From a phage, in the sequence record PZ154897.1: a stretch of 64,000 nt of DNA. One strand, written 5' to 3'. Below the pieces are notes generated by a model that worked only from the letters and a program-made list of their open reading frames with translations, made no database searches and had not been told where the DNA came from. Below are positions 1,804 to 53,803 of the stretch, piece by piece (positions within the stretch are counted from its first letter, which is position 1; each line of letters begins with the position of its first letter). The position numbers were made by a program, and so were the translations under genes.

Positions 1804-2439
1804 TCACAGTTCAGATGCTACAGTAATTACAGCTTCAATGTTTTCTGCCGAGCGTTTAATGTCAAGATACACATTACCGTTTTTAGCGATTTTACATGAC
1901 ATTCCGATATCAGTAAATTTCTGAATATGATGTTCCATCATTTTGTATCCAAAAATTCGCATATTTCCATTGTTGTTAATTTCAAAATTACGAATTCCGT
2001 GAGTGCGTTTTTCTAAAATAGCAAGATAGTTACTACGATAAGTTTCAACCTTTTTAAGAACAAATCCATTTTCATCTAAAAGTTTTAACATGAAGTCTTT
2101 ATCTTCTTCCATATCAGAAGTAATCTCGCGAGCTTTACGAGTTGCTCGTTTTTTCAGCAGTTCAGGAGCGTTTTCCTGCGCGTATAAAGTTGCCGCATTT
2201 GAAATAATATCCTGAGCTTCACCTGTAATGATTAATCCATCACCAGATTTCTCTACCAGGCCTTTTTTAATCAATACCCCAATATTACTATTAACTACTG
2301 CATTACCTAAATCTGGATGCACCTCACGAACTTCTGCAGCTGTAATGAAATCTTTCTTAGCAATGGTAATTAAAATCGCAGCAGTTTTTTCATTCAGAAC
2401 ATCGTTAGAAGCTTTGATGATGTAAGTTACTTTAGACAT
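1804..2439 (-). CDS. motA: MotA, activator of middle transcription
   Basis: 211-aa ORF, length and sequence as recalled for T4 MotA; synteny next to gene 52. Confidence 0.85.
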   Translation of the reverse strand: MSKVTYIIKASNDVLNEKTAAILITIAKKDFITAAEVREVHPDLGNAVVNSNIGVLIKKGLVEKSGDGLIITGEAQDIISNAATLYAQENAPELLKKRATRKAREITSDMEEDKDFMLKLLDENGFVLKKVETYRSNYLAILEKRTHGIRNFEINNNGNMRIFGYKMMEHHIQKFTDIGMSCKIAKNGNVYLDIKRSAENIEAVITVASEL

Positions 2440-2460
2440 TTTCTAATCTCCGTAATTCTG

Positions 2461-2490
2461 TATCAGTAGTTGATAGTTGTATAGTACCAC
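2461..2490 (-). promoter_or_regulatory. conserved -10/leader module (tggTACTATAcaactatcaactac) upstream of motA, no clear -35
   Basis: same ~30-bp module recurs at 6057, 13451, 32432, 60915, 62351. Confidence 0.4.
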
Positions 2491-2519
2491 AGTATGCTTT
2501 GGTCGGCTCTCCCTAAAAT

Positions 2520-2669
2520 TTACTGCATGACTGTGATAACTGTCATAATAACACGTTGAATTCCGAATGCAAGAAGACCTCCTGCTACGGCTTGAACAAC
2601 ACCTAAACCCGCCAGTAAAATACTACCGGATACTAATGCAGCGCTTGTAATACCTATGAATGGACTCAT
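2520..2669 (-). CDS. small hydrophobic peptide (49 aa), start overlaps gene 52 stop
   Basis: hand-translated: ATG at 2669 overlapping TGA of gene 52 (ATGA); continuous ORF to TAA at 2520. Confidence 0.45.
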   Translation of the reverse strand: MSPFIGITSAALVSGSILLAGLGVVQAVAGGLLAFGIQRVIMTVITVMQ

Positions 2670-3994
2670 TTGATTTCCTCTAAATCTTTGGTGTATTCTG
2701 TAACTACATCAGTAGTTTTCCAATATTCGTTTTCTTCTTTTTTAGCTTTAGCTTCTTCAGCAAGTTTCTTTGCTTCGTCAGAAGTCATATGAAAAATGTT
2801 CATTCCAACTAGTTTATCAACATAAGAAGAATACATATCAATTTTAGAAAGTTCTTCGGTCAGTTCTTTGCGAGTTTTACCTTGTACAACAATTTCACCT
2901 GAAATTACTTTCTTAATGAAATGTGCCTTAGCAAAAGCTAAACGAAATGCTGATTCAGTTTCTTTGATTTTGTTATCAATTCGTTTTTGGACATAAGTTT
3001 TACGAACTTCAACGAAGTCTTTAATTAAATCAACTACGTTATCGTAAACTTGCAGCTTTCCTTTCTCATTAATAACGGTAATATTCTGGGAACGACGCTC
3101 AATCAACCCGAAGTCTTTCATAATTTTTGCATGGCGTTCTTCTTCGTTATCACTCAAAGAGTATTCTTTACGGATTTTAACTTTGAAGCCAAAGCCATGC
3201 TCACCACAAGCATCATCCCATGTAATGAAGCCTTTATCTTCAAGTGGGTCTAAGATTTTACTCACATAAGTTTCACGATCATACTTATACGGAATCTCAG
3301 TGATATTCATTTGAGTTCGTGAAGTAAACTTGTACGTTCCACGAATTTCATATTGACCGTCAATTTCAACGACTTCACCACGAAATTCTGGGAATTCTAC
3401 CTTCGGTTTAGTTACTTTCTTTCCTTGAAGAGCTTGTAGTACAGCTTTCTTGACAGAAGAAACACTATGAGGAAGAATGTAAGTTGCATAACCAGTTGCA
3501 ATACCGGAAACACCATTAAGAAGAACAGTAGGAATAATAGGCAAATAGAAAGCAGGCGGAATGTGTTCTTTATCTTGATGTACCGGAGCATATTCAGTAT
3601 CTTTATATACGTTATAGAAATTTTTACTTACGCGAGCAAAAATATAACGACTTGCCGCTGCTTTTTGAACGGTACGAGAACCAAAGTTTCCTTGACCGTC
3701 TAACAGAGGAAAGTTATTATTCCAAGTGTTAGCCATCAAAGCCCCCGCATCTTGTGCAGAGTTTTCACCATGATGATATCCAAGGTCTGCTACACCACCT
3801 GCAATAGAAGCAAGTTTGTGAAACTTATCTTTATTTCCTCGCGCCAAATCAAGAGCTCGAGCAATAACAAATCGTTGGACTGGCTTAAATCCATCAATCA
3901 TATTTGGAATAGCACGATTTTCAACCGTGTACATAGCATAAGCCAGTGCTTCATTATCAATGATACTTTTTAAATCGCGATTATTCAGTTGCAT
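2666..3994 (-). CDS. 52: DNA topoisomerase II medium subunit (GyrA-like)
   Basis: 442-aa ORF, T4 gp52 length; breakage-reunion domain residues; synteny. Confidence 0.93.
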   Translation of the reverse strand: MQLNNRDLKSIIDNEALAYAMYTVENRAIPNMIDGFKPVQRFVIARALDLARGNKDKFHKLASIAGGVADLGYHHGENSAQDAGALMANTWNNNFPLLDGQGNFGSRTVQKAAASRYIFARVSKNFYNVYKDTEYAPVHQDKEHIPPAFYLPIIPTVLLNGVSGIATGYATYILPHSVSSVKKAVLQALQGKKVTKPKVEFPEFRGEVVEIDGQYEIRGTYKFTSRTQMNITEIPYKYDRETYVSKILDPLEDKGFITWDDACGEHGFGFKVKIRKEYSLSDNEEERHAKIMKDFGLIERRSQNITVINEKGKLQVYDNVVDLIKDFVEVRKTYVQKRIDNKIKETESAFRLAFAKAHFIKKVISGEIVVQGKTRKELTEELSKIDMYSSYVDKLVGMNIFHMTSDEAKKLAEEAKAKKEENEYWKTTDVVTEYTKDLEEIK

Positions 3995-3998
3995 AAAT

Positions 3999-4139
3999 TT
4001 ACCATACTAGTGAATGTAGTGCCATAATAACATCAGAAATGAAAAGCACGACTTGAATTAATCCGAACATTACTCCATAATATAGTGCTATCAATAAAAT
4101 AGCAAGGGCTACCGAGTAGCCCAAGATTTTCTTAATCAT
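3999..4139 (-). CDS. small membrane peptide (46 aa)
   Basis: hand-translated; ATG overlaps ac stop; ends 5 nt before gene 52 ATG. Confidence 0.45.
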   Translation of the reverse strand: MIKKILGYSVALAILLIALYYGVMFGLIQVVLFISDVIMALHSLVW

Positions 4140-4287
4140 TAGATAACAACGCAAATGTTAAATATGCACACATACCCTGGGCTAAAGCTTGTGAAAACAC
4201 ACTGCTAGCATCGATACAGATAGTTAAAACACATGCTACTATCCAACAAATAAATGAAATAACTCCTAATAGTTTTGCGATATTCAT
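4132..4287 (-). CDS. ac: Ac-like membrane peptide (51 aa)
   Basis: 51-aa hydrophobic ORF with GAGGA SD, between stp and 52 as in T4. Confidence 0.7.
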   Translation of the reverse strand: MNIAKLLGVISFICWIVACVLTICIDASSVFSQALAQGMCAYLTFALLSND

Positions 4288-4294
4288 ATTTTCC

Positions 4295-4375
4295 TCACTG
4301 GCGTCCGAAGACGCCTTTAGTTTTAAGATTGTTACGATAGAACTGCATCACATGTTCATTATGGAAATTACTCAT
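4295..4375 (-). CDS. stp: Stp peptide (26 aa)
   Basis: hand translation gives [26 protein letters not shown], matching T4 Stp as I recall it; TAATG overlap with ndd stop. Confidence 0.9.
4300..4315 (-). other. UUCG-tetraloop RNA hairpin inside stp coding sequence
   Basis: ggcgtc-cgaa-gacgcc on + strand = GGCGUC UUCG GACGCC on mRNA. Confidence 0.5.
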
Positions 4376-4830
4376 TAATATGCCTGCAAAACAAATTTAA
4401 AGTTATCAGCCAACATACGGTTCATTTCTTCAAGCGTTTGATACTCAGAATGATGATTACGAGTAAACGCTAAAGCTAACTGACCTTTTCCAAATCCCGT
4501 CGTCAGAGGTTTCATCTTAGAAGCAGGTAGATAAAATACTGTGTATGGAACATTATTATTTGCAATAGTACGCGCAAGCTGAGATCGACGCTGGCGAATA
4601 TGACTTAGAACTGCACTGAATCCTTGCTTAGAACGCTGATTACCTACATAAAATCGTGCAGATACACATGGACTATCAAATGGACCACCAAATTTGCTCA
4701 CTAAAAAGTAAAATCCAGGGTTAGACAAAATGTCTTTATGCGGAGTTCCAAAAACCCATTCACCGCCCTTGATTGTACCAATAACAGTTGCGCCTGCATT
4801 ATTCAAATCAGTAACAGTCATATATTTCAT
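4375..4830 (-). CDS. ndd: Ndd, host nucleoid disruption protein
   Basis: 151-aa ORF, T4 Ndd length; position next to stp. Confidence 0.8.
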
Positions 4831-49372: not shown

Positions 49373-49843
49373 TTAATCATGTTTCCACACCCCATCGGTA
49401 TTTGACCAAAGTCGCTGATTATCTGAACCTCGCCACAGCTTTTTGGTTGGAAGATTTTTCTCATACTTCCCATCAATAATAACATCAACATATTTAAGCA
49501 TTTCTAGTTGTTTAATATCTTCAAACTTGTACCCTGTCCACAACCAAATGCTTTTATTTGGATAAAGATTTTTTACAGTTTGAACAATGCAATGAACATC
49601 ATCTCGGTTATCAGGATAAAGAGGGTCACCTCCAGTTATAGTTAATCCTTCTATATAATCATTATTCAAACATTCAATTAATTGTTCTAGTGTTTCACCA
49701 GTAAATGGAACGCCATTTCTAGCATTCCATGTTGATTTATTATAACACCCTTCGCATTTATGCAAACAACCTGTAACGAAAAGAACTGTCCTGCATCCAG
49801 GACCATTAACAAAGCAGCACGGGTATATTCTGTCATAATTCAT
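49373..49843 (-). CDS. nrdG: anaerobic ribonucleotide reductase activating protein (radical SAM)
   Basis: CxxxCxxC cluster motif; 156 codons from internal ATG; adjacent to nrdD. Confidence 0.88.
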   Translation of the reverse strand: MNYDRIYPCCFVNGPGCRTVLFVTGCLHKCEGCYNKSTWNARNGVPFTGETLEQLIECLNNDYIEGLTITGGDPLYPDNRDDVHCIVQTVKNLYPNKSIWLWTGYKFEDIKQLEMLKYVDVIIDGKYEKNLPTKKLWRGSDNQRLWSNTDGVWKHD

Positions 49844-50670
49844 AATAATATCCAATTTTTCCAAGCTTCATCAGTAGAATTACAGCGTTTTAGTATAAGA
49901 TGTCTAGAAACTTTTATGGCATTTGAGCACTTTTTAATTGAATCATATTTAATACCGTCAACTGAAACGGTTTTGCTAGTTGGAGAAATTTTTCCATACA
50001 TTGGATTTTTTGAACCAACTTGAAGTCCTTTTAAAGCTTTTGAAAGCTTTTGTCTAGATTCCAATGACATGGGAGAATTCTTTTTACCTTCAATAATTCG
50101 CTTGCGATGAAGTTCGCGTTCTTCTTCACTCAAAGAATTGTAATATTTTTTAACACCGTTTGATATAGATAATTTATCTTTCTCAGACCGCTCTCCAGCT
50201 AATTTACTTCTAACATCTTTTCGCTTCATAGCTATGCTTACGGCTTTATTTAAATTTGCTTGATGCTCTGGCGTACGTTTATATTTCTTTAAAGCACGTG
50301 AAATAGCTATTTTAGTTTCTTCTGTTCTCTTTTTACCTTTATTTGCTAAACTATTTTTGCGGCGATGTTCAAGTGTCTGTTCATAGGCAGTTCCACCTTT
50401 TCCACCAGGTTTAATATTATATGTATTTTCTTTTAGACAATACTCTTCGGTTACAAGTTCAGCTTCTTTATCATACATTTGTTTTTCATTATCAAAAACA
50501 TGTAAAATTTCTTTATTAAAATTTTTTCTACCATATTTTAATAAAGCGGCACGAATCAATGTTCCTGACCCCATATAACCGTCATTTATGTTATCGGTGC
50601 TATGCGCACCGATATATTCCTTTGAATTAATTATATTTGTTATTTTATAAATTATATAATACCTATGCAT
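49840..50670 (-). CDS. free-standing GIY-YIG homing endonuclease with NUMOD repeats and C-terminal HTH
   Basis: YIIYKITN...YIGAHS...GYMGSG GIY-YIG module; overlaps nrdD 3' end by 8 nt. Confidence 0.8.
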   Translation of the reverse strand: MHRYYIIYKITNIINSKEYIGAHSTDNINDGYMGSGTLIRAALLKYGRKNFNKEILHVFDNEKQMYDKEAELVTEEYCLKENTYNIKPGGKGGTAYEQTLEHRRKNSLANKGKKRTEETKIAISRALKKYKRTPEHQANLNKAVSIAMKRKDVRSKLAGERSEKDKLSISNGVKKYYNSLSEEERELHRKRIIEGKKNSPMSLESRQKLSKALKGLQVGSKNPMYGKISPTSKTVSVDGIKYDSIKKCSNAIKVSRHLILKRCNSTDEAWKNWILL

Positions 50671-52480
50671 GTTTTACTCGTTTTACCATTTCTTTCATTT
50701 TACCTAAATTCCATGGAACAACGCTAGGAGTTCCAAGATATCCGCATGTTCTTCTTATTGTGTTCATCTTTTTAGGATCAGTTTCTCCACAAATAGAACA
50801 AACAAATCCGTTTTCAGTAGGAGTCATTTCATGGGTACTTCCGCATGTAAAACATTTATCTACCGGCATGTTAACACCAAAATAATCTAAATGTTGTGCA
50901 GCATAATCCCATATGGCCTCAAGGCCTTTTAAGTTATTTTTCATATCAGGAAGTTCAACATAAGAAATGTGACCACCTGTCGCAATGAAATGATATGGCG
51001 CTTCACGAGAAATCTTTTCAAACGGAGTAATATTTTCTTCTACTGAAACGTGGAAACTGTTAGTGTACCAGCCTTTATCAGTAACATCCTTTACACTTCC
51101 ATATTTTTCAGTATCAAGTTTACAGAAGCGATAGCACAGGTTTTCAGCAGGTGTAGAATACAAGCTAAAAGCAAAACCGGTTCTTTCAGTCCACTGCTTA
51201 AGACGAGTATTCATTTTAGTTAAAATTTCTTGTCCAATATCACGACCAACAAGAATATTCAATTCGTGAATACCAATGTATCCTAGGGACACTGAACTTC
51301 TACCGTTTTTAAATAACTCAATTATATCATCATCGGGTTTAAGACGAACCCCGAATGCACCTTCTTGGTAAAGAATAGGAGCAACAGTAGCTTTAACTCC
51401 TTTTAAGGAACTAATTCTACACATCAATGCTTCAAAACATAAATCAATTCGTTCATTGAACAATTCGGCAAATTTCTGTTCATTGAACTGTGTTCCAATA
51501 TAAGAATCTAGCGCAATGCGAGGAAGATTCAGTGTTACAACGCCAAGATTATTACGTCCATCAAGAATTTCATTACCAGTCGAATCTTTCCATACGCTCA
51601 AGAAACTGCGGCAACCCATTGGAGAAACAGGAATAGATGAACCTGTGATAGCTTTATTGTTCTTAGCCGAAATGATGTCAGGATACATTCTTTTGCTTGC
51701 ACACTCTAAAGCAAGCTGTTTAATATCATAGTTCGGATCGTCTTTATAAAGATTAACACCTTCTTCAACGAACATAACAAGTTTAGGGAAAATAGGAGTT
51801 ATCCCGTCACGACCAAGACCTTTAATACGATTTTTCAGAATTGCTTTCTGAATCATTCGTTCAGTCCAGTCAGTTCCCGTACCAAATGTAATTGTTACAA
51901 AAGGCGTTTGTCCGTTTGAACTAAAGAGAGTATTTACTTCATATTCATAAGCTTGGAACGCATCGTATACATCTTTTTCTGTTTTAGATTGGGCATAATT
52001 CAATGCATCTGCGATTTGCCATTTTTCCGCGTCCTCAATATGTTTCGCATAGGTGCGTTTAACATAAGGAGAAAGTACTTTATCTACATTCGCAAAAGTC
52101 GTTCCACCATATTGATGGGAAGCAACCTGTGCAGTAATTTGTGCCATAATTGCAGTAGCAACACCGATTGATTTAGGAGTTTCAATCTGTGCATTACCGA
52201 GCTTAAACCCGTTCTCAAGCATTCCTTTTAAATCTACTAAACAACAATTAGTAAAAGGCAATGATATACTGTAATCTAAATCATGAAAATGAATTAATCC
52301 GACGTTATGAGCATTTACAATATGGCTTGGAAGAATACTACAAGCGATATGTTTAGAAACAATACCAGCCATTAAATCTCTTTTTGTTGGAAAGACACGA
52401 GAATCTTTGTTGGCATTTTCGGTATTTAATTCTTTATCTTTATTTGAAATAAAATTTAAAACATCTTTCTCTAAAGACAT
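50663..52480 (-). CDS. nrdD: anaerobic ribonucleoside-triphosphate reductase (glycyl radical enzyme), intron-less
   Basis: 605-aa continuous ORF; C-terminal RRTCGYLG glycyl radical motif; Cys4 zinc site. Confidence 0.95.
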   Translation of the reverse strand: MSLEKDVLNFISNKDKELNTENANKDSRVFPTKRDLMAGIVSKHIACSILPSHIVNAHNVGLIHFHDLDYSISLPFTNCCLVDLKGMLENGFKLGNAQIETPKSIGVATAIMAQITAQVASHQYGGTTFANVDKVLSPYVKRTYAKHIEDAEKWQIADALNYAQSKTEKDVYDAFQAYEYEVNTLFSSNGQTPFVTITFGTGTDWTERMIQKAILKNRIKGLGRDGITPIFPKLVMFVEEGVNLYKDDPNYDIKQLALECASKRMYPDIISAKNNKAITGSSIPVSPMGCRSFLSVWKDSTGNEILDGRNNLGVVTLNLPRIALDSYIGTQFNEQKFAELFNERIDLCFEALMCRISSLKGVKATVAPILYQEGAFGVRLKPDDDIIELFKNGRSSVSLGYIGIHELNILVGRDIGQEILTKMNTRLKQWTERTGFAFSLYSTPAENLCYRFCKLDTEKYGSVKDVTDKGWYTNSFHVSVEENITPFEKISREAPYHFIATGGHISYVELPDMKNNLKGLEAIWDYAAQHLDYFGVNMPVDKCFTCGSTHEMTPTENGFVCSICGETDPKKMNTIRRTCGYLGTPSVVPWNLGKMKEMVKRVKHA

Positions 52481-53292
52481 AATTCTAATTTATCCTTTTG
52501 AAATTCTTCGTCTAAATATGGGTTCCAACCCATTTTAAACCTTTTGATGAAATTATCAATTCTAAATTTCGGTAAGTTTAAATCCGCAAAAATAGATGAT
52601 TTACTTTTAAAATATGGACCTAAATAATCATATAAAATTTCTGCGTATTTTAACCATAATATACAAGTACCAGATTTAATTGCTCTCGGAGTTTTCCAAG
52701 GTTTTACACCATACATCGGATTTCCACTTCCTTTATGCCTGATAGAAGATGAAATTCCAATTTTAATTTTAGCTTCCTTTGTGTGCGAAAATCCATGATG
52801 TGGATTTTCTTTCCAGTATTTTTTAGAAGCTTCTGATATTTTCTTTCTGGCTAAATTAGTATGATGCTTTCCATAAAATCCATGATTTTTACCTTTATTA
52901 CGATTTCTTTTAATCATGGTTATTGATTGCTTTTCTCTAGTTTCTTTAGAAGGAGAAATACCATACGTTGTAAATTGACCGTCAGCATATGCTAAATTGA
53001 AATACTCTTTATTCCATATATCTTTTTCTATATTCTTTTGAAATTCAGCTTCAATGCTAGTTATTTGTTCATCTCCGACTAATTGAAAATATAATATTTC
53101 AACTTTCGGCGTTTCTTTCAACAGGGCTTTTTGAAATTCGGAAGATGACGAAGACGAATAATAAAATTTACCATTTTTATCAATAATATTCGTTCCGTCA
53201 AAAGTGCAATTGGTTTTACTTCCAATATAATAATATGGCGGGGTTTTAGCATTAATTCTACTAATAAATGATAGTTTATATACTACATTCAT
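52471..53292 (-). CDS. free-standing GIY-YIG-like homing endonuclease
   Basis: VYKLSFISRI...YYYIGS module plus basic repeat units; ATGA overlap with gene 49 stop, 10-nt overlap with nrdD start. Confidence 0.65.
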   Translation of the reverse strand: MNVVYKLSFISRINAKTPPYYYIGSKTNCTFDGTNIIDKNGKFYYSSSSSSEFQKALLKETPKVEILYFQLVGDEQITSIEAEFQKNIEKDIWNKEYFNLAYADGQFTTYGISPSKETREKQSITMIKRNRNKGKNHGFYGKHHTNLARKKISEASKKYWKENPHHGFSHTKEAKIKIGISSSIRHKGSGNPMYGVKPWKTPRAIKSGTCILWLKYAEILYDYLGPYFKSKSSIFADLNLPKFRIDNFIKRFKMGWNPYLDEEFQKDKLELCL

Positions 53293-53762
53293 TTTAAACT
53301 CTTTCTAAGCTGCTTCTTGAATGAAGCTATTAATTGTGTTTTGGTGTCAGATTCATTATATTCAAATCCTCTTTGAAGCATCTCGGCCATCATTTCCTCT
53401 TTTCCTAAACGAGAAAATTCCTTTGATTTATCTCCAACGAAGTTAGGGTGAATATTATTTTGGGTGTAATCGGATTTTAAATAAGTAAGTAAATTTTCTA
53501 ACCATTCAAGATAATCAACACCTTGTCCCTTTAAGCCAGAACGATTAAATTTGTGCTTCATTTGACCTTCTGCGGCATTGCATAGATTACAAAGCAATCC
53601 ACGTACCTTTCCTGCTTTTGGTCCATTTAATTCATGGTCATGATCGAGGTGATTAGCTTGAACGTCAGGATTTAGTTCTCGTTGGCAAATTAAGCATTTA
53701 CCATTTTGTGCATCATAAAATTTCTGTTTTTCTTCTTTATATAATTTGCCAGTCAATAACAT
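53289..53762 (-). CDS. 49: endonuclease VII (Holliday junction resolvase)
   Basis: 157-aa ORF, T4 endo VII length; Cys4 zinc motif and H-N-H catalytic region. Confidence 0.9.
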   Translation of the reverse strand: MLLTGKLYKEEKQKFYDAQNGKCLICQRELNPDVQANHLDHDHELNGPKAGKVRGLLCNLCNAAEGQMKHKFNRSGLKGQGVDYLEWLENLLTYLKSDYTQNNIHPNFVGDKSKEFSRLGKEEMMAEMLQRGFEYNESDTKTQLIASFKKQLRKSLK

Positions 53763-53803
53763 AATAAACCCTTACCTTAAATAGATAAGGGTATTTATTA
53801 TTT

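Follow-up and report, generated by a model that had tools for sequence, protein, structure and literature searches.

Organization of the gene 49-nrdD-nrdG region

We have analyzed the interval between gene 49 and nrdG in a 64,000-nucleotide stretch of phage DNA (sequence record PZ154897.1), referred to here as the window. The window belongs to a T4-like, Tequatrovirus-type phage: its 4.5-kb interval has matches in 943 phage records, mostly of T4-type phages of Escherichia, about 587 of them at 90% identity or above, and the best match (OES_C-3) reaches 98.0%. The genes are all encoded on the minus strand and follow one another in the transcription order gene 49, open reading frame (ORF) 2, nrdD, ORF1 and nrdG. 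The nrdD gene is thus flanked on both sides by a free-standing homing endonuclease gene (HEG). We consider it likely that this operon has been invaded twice by free-standing HEGs of the GIY-YIG type, each accompanied by a linked end of nrdD. The coordinates of the features are collected in Table 1.

The coding sequences are tightly packed. The gene 49 stop and the ORF2 start overlap by 4 nt (ATGA), ORF2 and nrdD by 10 nt, and nrdD and ORF1 by 8 nt. For nrdG, relatives are annotated with a start at the ATG at 49843, and with this start ORF1 and nrdG share another 4 nt (ATGA); the longest mechanical ORF for nrdG begins further upstream, with a TTG at 49864. An earlier interpretation made from the letters alone (the sequence-only reading) had described both ORFs, overlaps of 8-10 nt, the ATGA coupling of ORF2 to the gene 49 stop, and a clean nrdD ending in the RRTCGYLG glycyl radical motif, and all of these are found as described. 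The nrdD reading frame is unbroken up to its C-terminal end, RRTCGYLGTPSVVPWNLGKMKEMVKRVKHA, and the protein encoded by gene 49 is 100% identical to that of several relatives. The NUMOD-like repeats noted in that reading are likewise borne out, since NUMOD3 (PF07460) scores above the Pfam cut-off in both ORF1 and ORF2 (3.1e-8 and 6.1e-7). Both proteins also match PHROG families annotated as homing endonucleases (phrog_314 for ORF1, 2.4e-60).

Table 1. Features of the gene 49-nrdD-nrdG region of the window
Feature	Position	Strand	Remarks
gene 49 (endonuclease VII)	53289..53762	-	Conserved upstream gene; Pfam Endonuclease_7 and Endonuc-dimeris
ORF2, SegG-like free-standing homing endonuclease gene	52471..53292	-	273 amino acids
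ORF2-linked variant 5' end of nrdD	52256..52480	-	nrdD nt 1-225, amino acids 1-75
nrdD, intron-less	50663..52480	-	605 codons; Pfam NRDD (2e-170) and Gly_radical
Empty I-TevII group I intron site	51942..51943	-	After nrdD nt 538; usual intron-less allele
SegH-linked variant 3' end of nrdD	50663..50730	-	Last 68 nt of nrdD
ORF1 (segH), GIY-YIG free-standing homing endonuclease gene	49840..50670	-	276 amino acids
nrdG (activase)	49373..49843	-	Conserved downstream gene; Pfam Fer4_12 (4.7e-48)

ORF2, a relative of SegG

The predicted ORF2 protein consists of an N-terminal domain of the GIY-YIG type (approximately amino acids 1-105), a series of NUMOD3 repeats (approximately 113-195) and a C-terminal domain. 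Its amino acids 1-126 match T4 SegG with 40% identity over 128 columns (BLASTP, E 9e-27), and tblastn searches with ORF2 return segG matches in many T4-type genomes. BLASTP detected no C-terminal similarity between ORF2 and T4 SegG. Homologs of other phages that occupy the SegG position, beside gene 59, align over 97% of ORF2 with about 32% identity, and because of this coverage the C-terminal domain of ORF2 is also of the SegG type.

The sequence-only reading had regarded the GIY-YIG motif of ORF2 (VYKLSFISRI ... YYYIGS) as degenerate. These strings are indeed present in the translation, but they represent the normal form of the SegG-like subfamily. In an alignment of 20 SegG-like members the near-invariant residues are Y5, R12, P19, Y22, I23, G24, S25, K26, Y44, S47, E81, F98, N99 and A103, and ORF2 has 14 of the 14; R12 lies in a short inserted helix. 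When ORF2 is aligned profile to profile with canonical GIY-YIG domains (hhalign, E 8e-5), the YIG motif, E81 and N99 coincide with the canonical residues, and the residues characteristic of the superfamily (the tyrosine Y5, Y22-I23-G24, E81 and N99) are all present. The N-terminal domain is predicted to fold like the catalytic domain of I-TevI, with the GIY-YIG alpha/beta arrangement. Sequence searches against solved structures gave no matches for ORF2 and only unrelated proteins for ORF1 (best E 0.14).

All seven copies of ORF2 that were compared are intact. They differ at 35 variable nucleotide sites, 20 of them silent and 15 in codons with an amino acid change, and the pairwise ratio of nonsynonymous to synonymous polymorphism (pN/pS) is between 0.05 and 0.22 for the more diverged pairs; the protein is under purifying selection. 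We considered and rejected the possibility that ORF2 is a decayed gene, given that its seemingly degenerate motif is the norm among SegG-like proteins, that the near-invariant residues are kept, and that selection maintains the protein.

ORF2 lies between gene 49 and nrdD and not at the position of segG, between genes 59 and 32; it is therefore a paralog at a new locus. Existing records label it "homing endonuclease", "NUMOD3 domain-containing DNA-binding protein", "24.6 kDa protein" or, in the GenBank record of JK42, "SegG". The last label implies orthology, which we reject on account of the different locus. A search for a published specific name, in which segI, segJ and segK were considered, found nothing relevant. 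Judged by these comparisons, ORF2 is an uncharacterised homolog of SegG and would be a new endonuclease in an otherwise known T-even set.

T4 SegG (gene 32.1, between genes 59 and 32) and ORF2 share the nuclease domain MNxVY...R...KTPPYYYIGSK...E...YFNL, and both genes are promoter-less cassettes located directly upstream of a probable target gene. ORF2 is 62 amino acids longer, owing to NUMOD3 repeats that T4 SegG does not have. T4 SegG is an active GIY-YIG endonuclease whose target is gene 32, downstream of segG (Edgell et al. 2010, PMC2988022).

A further homolog, P0003, is found at positions 4001-4822 of a 90.8-kb contig from a T4-like phage (ENA contig NODE_202; L020), between the gp5 lysozyme gene and the next gene of the baseplate region. 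It shares 57% identity with ORF2 in the nuclease domain but has a different C-terminal half, a combination that illustrates the shuffling of nuclease domains between loci.

ORF1 and SegH

The ORF1 protein is 100% identical over its 276 amino acids to SegH of phage RB3 (GenBank AY262138.2), and in the RB3 record segH overlaps nrdD by 8 nt and nrdG by 4 nt, exactly as in the window. The record of PP01 names this exact sequence SegH, and in a large protein collection it is present on 111 contigs. By these matches ORF1 can be assigned to SegH, which is already published, so that this half of the finding is known. SegH of RB3/U5, located between nrdD and nrdG, was described by Sandegren, Nord and Sjoberg (2005, Nucleic Acids Res 33:6203), and the enzyme is reported to cleave near its own gene and to home in mixed infections. 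There is no detectable difference between RB3 SegH and ORF1 in protein, position or overlaps; what is new in the window is the context, namely a second endonuclease gene across nrdD.

The GIY-YIG residues of ORF1, namely the conserved tyrosines and glycine together with an Arg, a Glu and an Asn within about the first 95 amino acids, are present (IIY, YIG, LIRAALLKYG, KEAEL and YNIKPGG) and align with proteins that carry Pfam PF01541; the strings YIIYKITN, YIGAHS and GYMGSG quoted by the sequence-only reading all occur in its translation. The match of ORF1 to Pfam SegE_GIY-YIG is below threshold (18.6 bits, cut-off 25). A C-terminal helix-turn-helix had also been claimed for ORF1, and here the only trace is a match to the I-TevI DNA-binding domain (PF20987) that likewise falls below threshold, with 21.1 bits against a cut-off of 27.

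In several records (e.g. RB5, the T6 RefSeq record, fPS-2, HY03 and ACG-C40) SegH is annotated as a protein of 244 amino acids that starts at the internal Met33 (MGSG...). A protein that starts there would be without the GIY and YIG motifs, and the annotation is probably wrong.

Distribution among relatives

Carriers of ORF2 and SegH were counted at a protein identity of at least 90%, against a base of the approximately 587 records with a match of at least 90% to the region from gene 49 to nrdG. In this phage collection ORF2 is present in 50 records and SegH in 73. About 10 records have both genes (100% coverage of the 4.5-kb query), which is near the number expected from independent assortment. 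A scan of IMG/VR with NrdD returned 10 loci, a sample that suits a comparison of haplotypes and is too small for statistics.

Among the GenBank and IMG/VR loci all four combinations of ORF2 and SegH occur, with or without the I-TevII intron. Neither gene is present in L005-L010 and L012; ORF2 alone is found in L011 and ORF2 with the intron in L013; SegH alone is found in PP01 (L002); both genes are found in L001, and both genes with the intron in L003. T4 itself (L015, AF158101) has mobC and the intron. The presence/absence polymorphism that the sequence-only reading proposed to look for across this interval therefore exists, and neither gene is universal among the relatives.

Genomes that lack ORF2 have the gene 49 stop overlapping the nrdD start directly (ATGA). 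Relative to these, ORF2 is an insertion of 812 nt at precisely this junction. It uses the former ribosome-binding region of nrdD, and the new nrdD start lies inside the last 10 nt of ORF2.

Linked ends of nrdD

Comparison of five loci with ORF2 and nine without it yielded 73 fixed differences linked to ORF2, all of them within nt 4-225 of nrdD. No fixed differences linked to ORF2 were found in the last 150 nt of gene 49 or in nt 226-450 of nrdD in the same comparison. Residues 1-75 of NrdD differ accordingly between the two sets of loci. At 95% identity or more, the variant 5' tract of nrdD is found in 50 database records, the next best match being no better than 76%; it directly adjoins ORF2 in 49 records, and the two exceptions are the Mosigvirus phages OLB35 and FL18, discussed below. 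The tract is presumed to be a cleavage-immune allele, and ORF2 is always inherited together with it.

The opposite end of nrdD presents a similar picture with respect to SegH. Five loci with SegH and 12 without it (17 in total) are separated by 26 fixed differences. These start right after the codons for RRTCGYLG and are confined to the final 68 nt of nrdD. None was found in the first 300 nt of nrdG among the same 17 loci. The SegH-linked tail alters 11 of the last 22 residues of NrdD, which read TPSVVPWNLGKMKEMVKRVKHA in place of NPNERGFNLGKNKEIMHRVKHQ. Both linked tracts are 33-38% diverged from the common allele. The NrdD of the window can therefore be described as a mosaic of three parts, whose N-terminus is linked to ORF2, whose core is of the common T4 type and whose C-terminal 22 amino acids are linked to SegH; this was read from a sliding-window identity profile and from comparisons of the N- and C-terminal protein sequences. 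Such sharply bounded, divergent ends fit the idea, put forward in the sequence-only reading, of cleavage inside or close to nrdD of endonuclease-free relatives.

In U5 (AY262145.2), G9062, TuIa and SG1, the last 90 nt of nrdD are about 76% identical to the SegH-linked tail (window 50671-50760), which points to at least one further 3' allele of nrdD.

A linked tract need not mark the target. ORF2 might be active with its target elsewhere, in gene 49, at the junction of gene 49 and nrdD or deeper in nrdD. If so, the 5' tract would be no more than a leftover of the original acquisition from a distant phage. Divergence of this extent would keep the tract tied to ORF2 with or without immunity. In keeping with a distant source, a search for the donor lineage of the variant 5' end found none, the best match outside the carriers being no better than 76% identical. 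The absence of ORF2-linked fixed differences from the last 150 nt of gene 49 speaks against this explanation, as does the analogy with SegG, whose target lies downstream of its gene (PMC2988022). A locus from a distant T4-like phage bears on both sides of the question.

This locus (L022; Logan contig SRR27536177_201122, positions 2188-4712) encodes a gp49 and an NrdD that are 64% and 67% identical in protein to those of the window. Its order is gene 49, a 55-codon remnant of the nrdD 5' end, a frameshifted homolog of ORF2, and an nrdD with its own 5' end, which reaches the end of the contig and is likely to be complete. The ORF2 homolog is 54-66% identical and is broken at the serine-rich stretch. 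Here too the endonuclease arrived with its own nrdD 5' end, the resident one being displaced rather than replaced. Because the remnant ends at codon 55, an old junction can be placed near nt 165 of nrdD, inside the same tract that is linked to ORF2 in the window, and this too argues against a target elsewhere. On the other hand, the three nrdD N-termini now available (the window variant, the T4 type and that of L022) are about equally diverged, with amino acid identities of 53-63%, which speaks for a target elsewhere; the L022 N-terminus is slightly nearer to the window variant than to the T4 type (63% versus 53%). Taking both sides together, we regard a target elsewhere as unlikely, and we lean towards a cut site for ORF2 within nt 1-225 of nrdD.

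Transfer and loss of the endonuclease genes

ORF2 occurs in both Tequatrovirus and Mosigvirus. In the Mosigvirus ST0 (L018, NC_041990.1) it is intact, and gene 49 is only 68-88% identical to that of the window. Roughly 100 nt ahead of ORF2 the identity climbs to 97-100%, and it holds at this level through the gene, the mark of a transfer between genera in which a short stretch upstream was co-converted. The RefSeq entry for ST0 has no annotation for the 822-nt ORF2, so that gene 49 and nrdD are separated there by a gap (locus 3221-4028).

Two other Mosigvirus genomes record losses in this region. OLB35 (L016, MH992122.1; locus 3199-3220) has no ORF2, and the first 22 nt of ORF2 (MNVVYKL) open its nrdD, joined in register with codon 8 of the variant nrdD. 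This junction is the footprint of a loss of ORF2 in which the variant allele stayed behind. In FL18 (L017, PP400780.1; 2614-4105), codons 1 to about 203 of ORF2 are fused in frame, with a 16-nt overlap, to the last 20 or so codons of nrdD. The fused part is the SegH-linked tail (...YGVKPWKTPSVVPWNLGK...), followed by SegH and nrdG. Because the fused tail directly precedes SegH and nrdG, nrdD has been deleted between the two endonuclease genes.

Intron site, T4 arrangement and expression signals

L003 and L013 have an insertion of about 1.05 kb (1057 columns) after nt 538 of nrdD, which the window lacks. On both sides of the empty site (window 51903-51982) the flanking 13-14 bases match those of other intron-less loci; loci that contain the intron have silent changes there. 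Since the site is empty and its exon flanks are of the intron-less type, the nrdD of the window should still be a target for the intron.

The T4 annotation gives nrdD as a coding sequence in two pieces that enclose I-TevII, in agreement with the sequence-only reading. The same reading had placed mobD near nrdG in T4; the gene between nrdD and nrdG there is mobC (HNH). Selfish nuclease genes thus use the same operon and the same junctions in both phages, but T4 has mobC and the I-TevII intron, whereas the window has neither and instead has a GIY-YIG-type gene on each side of nrdD. With SegH where T4 has mobC, and with the SegG-like ORF2, the window does offer a different homing endonuclease solution at the same hotspot. 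GIY-YIG similarity was found for both proteins, and the catalytic residues are not lost in both. T4 mobC (L015, start at about 1539) begins MNYDRIY..., and its first codons are near-identical to those of nrdG (MNYDRFYP / MNYDRIYP); insertion of mobC seems to have copied or captured the start of nrdG.

The T4 late-promoter motif TATAAATA was not found in the region, and matches resembling sigma-70 promoters are at chance level. Both endonuclease genes are without promoters of their own. A terminator-like 10-bp stem-loop followed by a T-run is located at 53768-53792 (minus strand), directly upstream of the gene 49 start, and may be the known regulatory hairpin ahead of gene 49.

Proposed mechanism

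A double invasion of the operon could have proceeded as follows. In a mixed infection each enzyme would cut the common, HEG-less allele at the nrdD end next to its own gene. The broken molecule would then be repaired from the donor, which would contribute both the endonuclease gene and the divergent, presumably uncuttable, nrdD tract. Crossovers would be confined to the outside of the tracts, and each gene would move with its nrdD end as one module. We propose that the absolute linkage and the sharp shared boundaries arise because a divergence of 33-38% bars crossovers inside the tracts. The scheme is modelled by analogy on the behaviour of SegF, SegG, SegE and MobE as summarised in PMC2988022. 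With the marker exclusion and intronless homing systems of SegF, SegE and MobE (PMC2988022) the window shares a free-standing gene beside a conserved target, a co-converted flank and a patchy distribution. It differs from them in that two modules meet on one gene, where both NrdD termini are replaced. For the window we infer the catalytic activity of ORF2 and the cleavage positions of both enzymes.

Several points weigh against this scheme. The linkage between SegH and the nrdD tail rests on the 17 loci mentioned above, and a database-wide search with a 90-nt query gave a mixture of full and partial matches from which no clean count could be taken. SegH reportedly cuts DNA that contains the HEG as well (Sandegren et al. 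2005), which would weaken the case for an immune allele at the SegH end. The divergent tracts could also be historical hitch-hikers from a distant donor and not determinants of immunity. The remaining point concerns the active site of ORF2. The canonical catalytic arginine of GIY-YIG enzymes corresponds to R27 of I-TevI; in ORF2 this position is a serine, within a run of six serines, and the position is variable across the SegG-like family. Because an identifiable canonical arginine is missing, activity of ORF2 is something we can only infer.

The same serine run lends itself to another account, in which ORF2 has lost its catalytic activity, or has been domesticated as a DNA-binding protein that might, for example, regulate nrdD. 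It would be kept by the dependence of nrdD on its 3' end for the initiation of translation and be spread only by ordinary recombination or hitch-hiking. A Pfam scan of ORF2 indeed gave no GIY-YIG match. The nrdD start codon and the region upstream of it lie inside ORF2, which would penalise deletion, and embedded signals of this kind favour the retention of HEGs (PMC2988022). Yet OLB35 is just such a deletion, a clean one with nrdD intact. Nor would a dead or domesticated protein be expected to keep all the near-invariant residues of a family that includes the active T4 SegG, to show the signs of purifying selection over its whole length, or to lie in a stretch that is 97-100% identical across genera and ends sharply within gene 49. 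We consider this account distinctly improbable and prefer that of two invading endonuclease modules.

The observations can be joined into a more specific proposal, which we put forward tentatively and as doubtful in its entirety. ORF2 would belong to an active SegG-type lineage that dispenses with the canonical arginine, perhaps by means of R12, and would home into the first 225 or so nt of nrdD as an obligate module of endonuclease and immune end. Together with SegH, it would swap both NrdD termini between genera and could delete the whole gene, as in FL18.

Conclusion

In T-even phages the nrd genes are among the classic targets of homing endonucleases, and an arrangement of the kind described here will be expected by the specialist. 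It does not alter the general view that T4-type phages are hotspots of homing endonucleases around the genes of nucleotide metabolism. To the well-studied T-even set the locus would add one uncharacterised homing endonuclease, ORF2, and its predicted target, nt 1-225 of nrdD, is narrow enough for direct testing. For annotation, ORF2 should not be named SegG, and SegH starts at the internal methionine drop the catalytic motif. The parts most worth following up are the modularity of endonuclease and target end, the footprints in OLB35 and FL18, and the question of the arginine. More broadly, the locus would be a case in which two selfish genes converge on one host gene to give a chimeric enzyme, and in which endonuclease modules may carry coding sequence across genera, leaving behind the footprint of a loss in OLB35 and the deletion of a gene in FL18.

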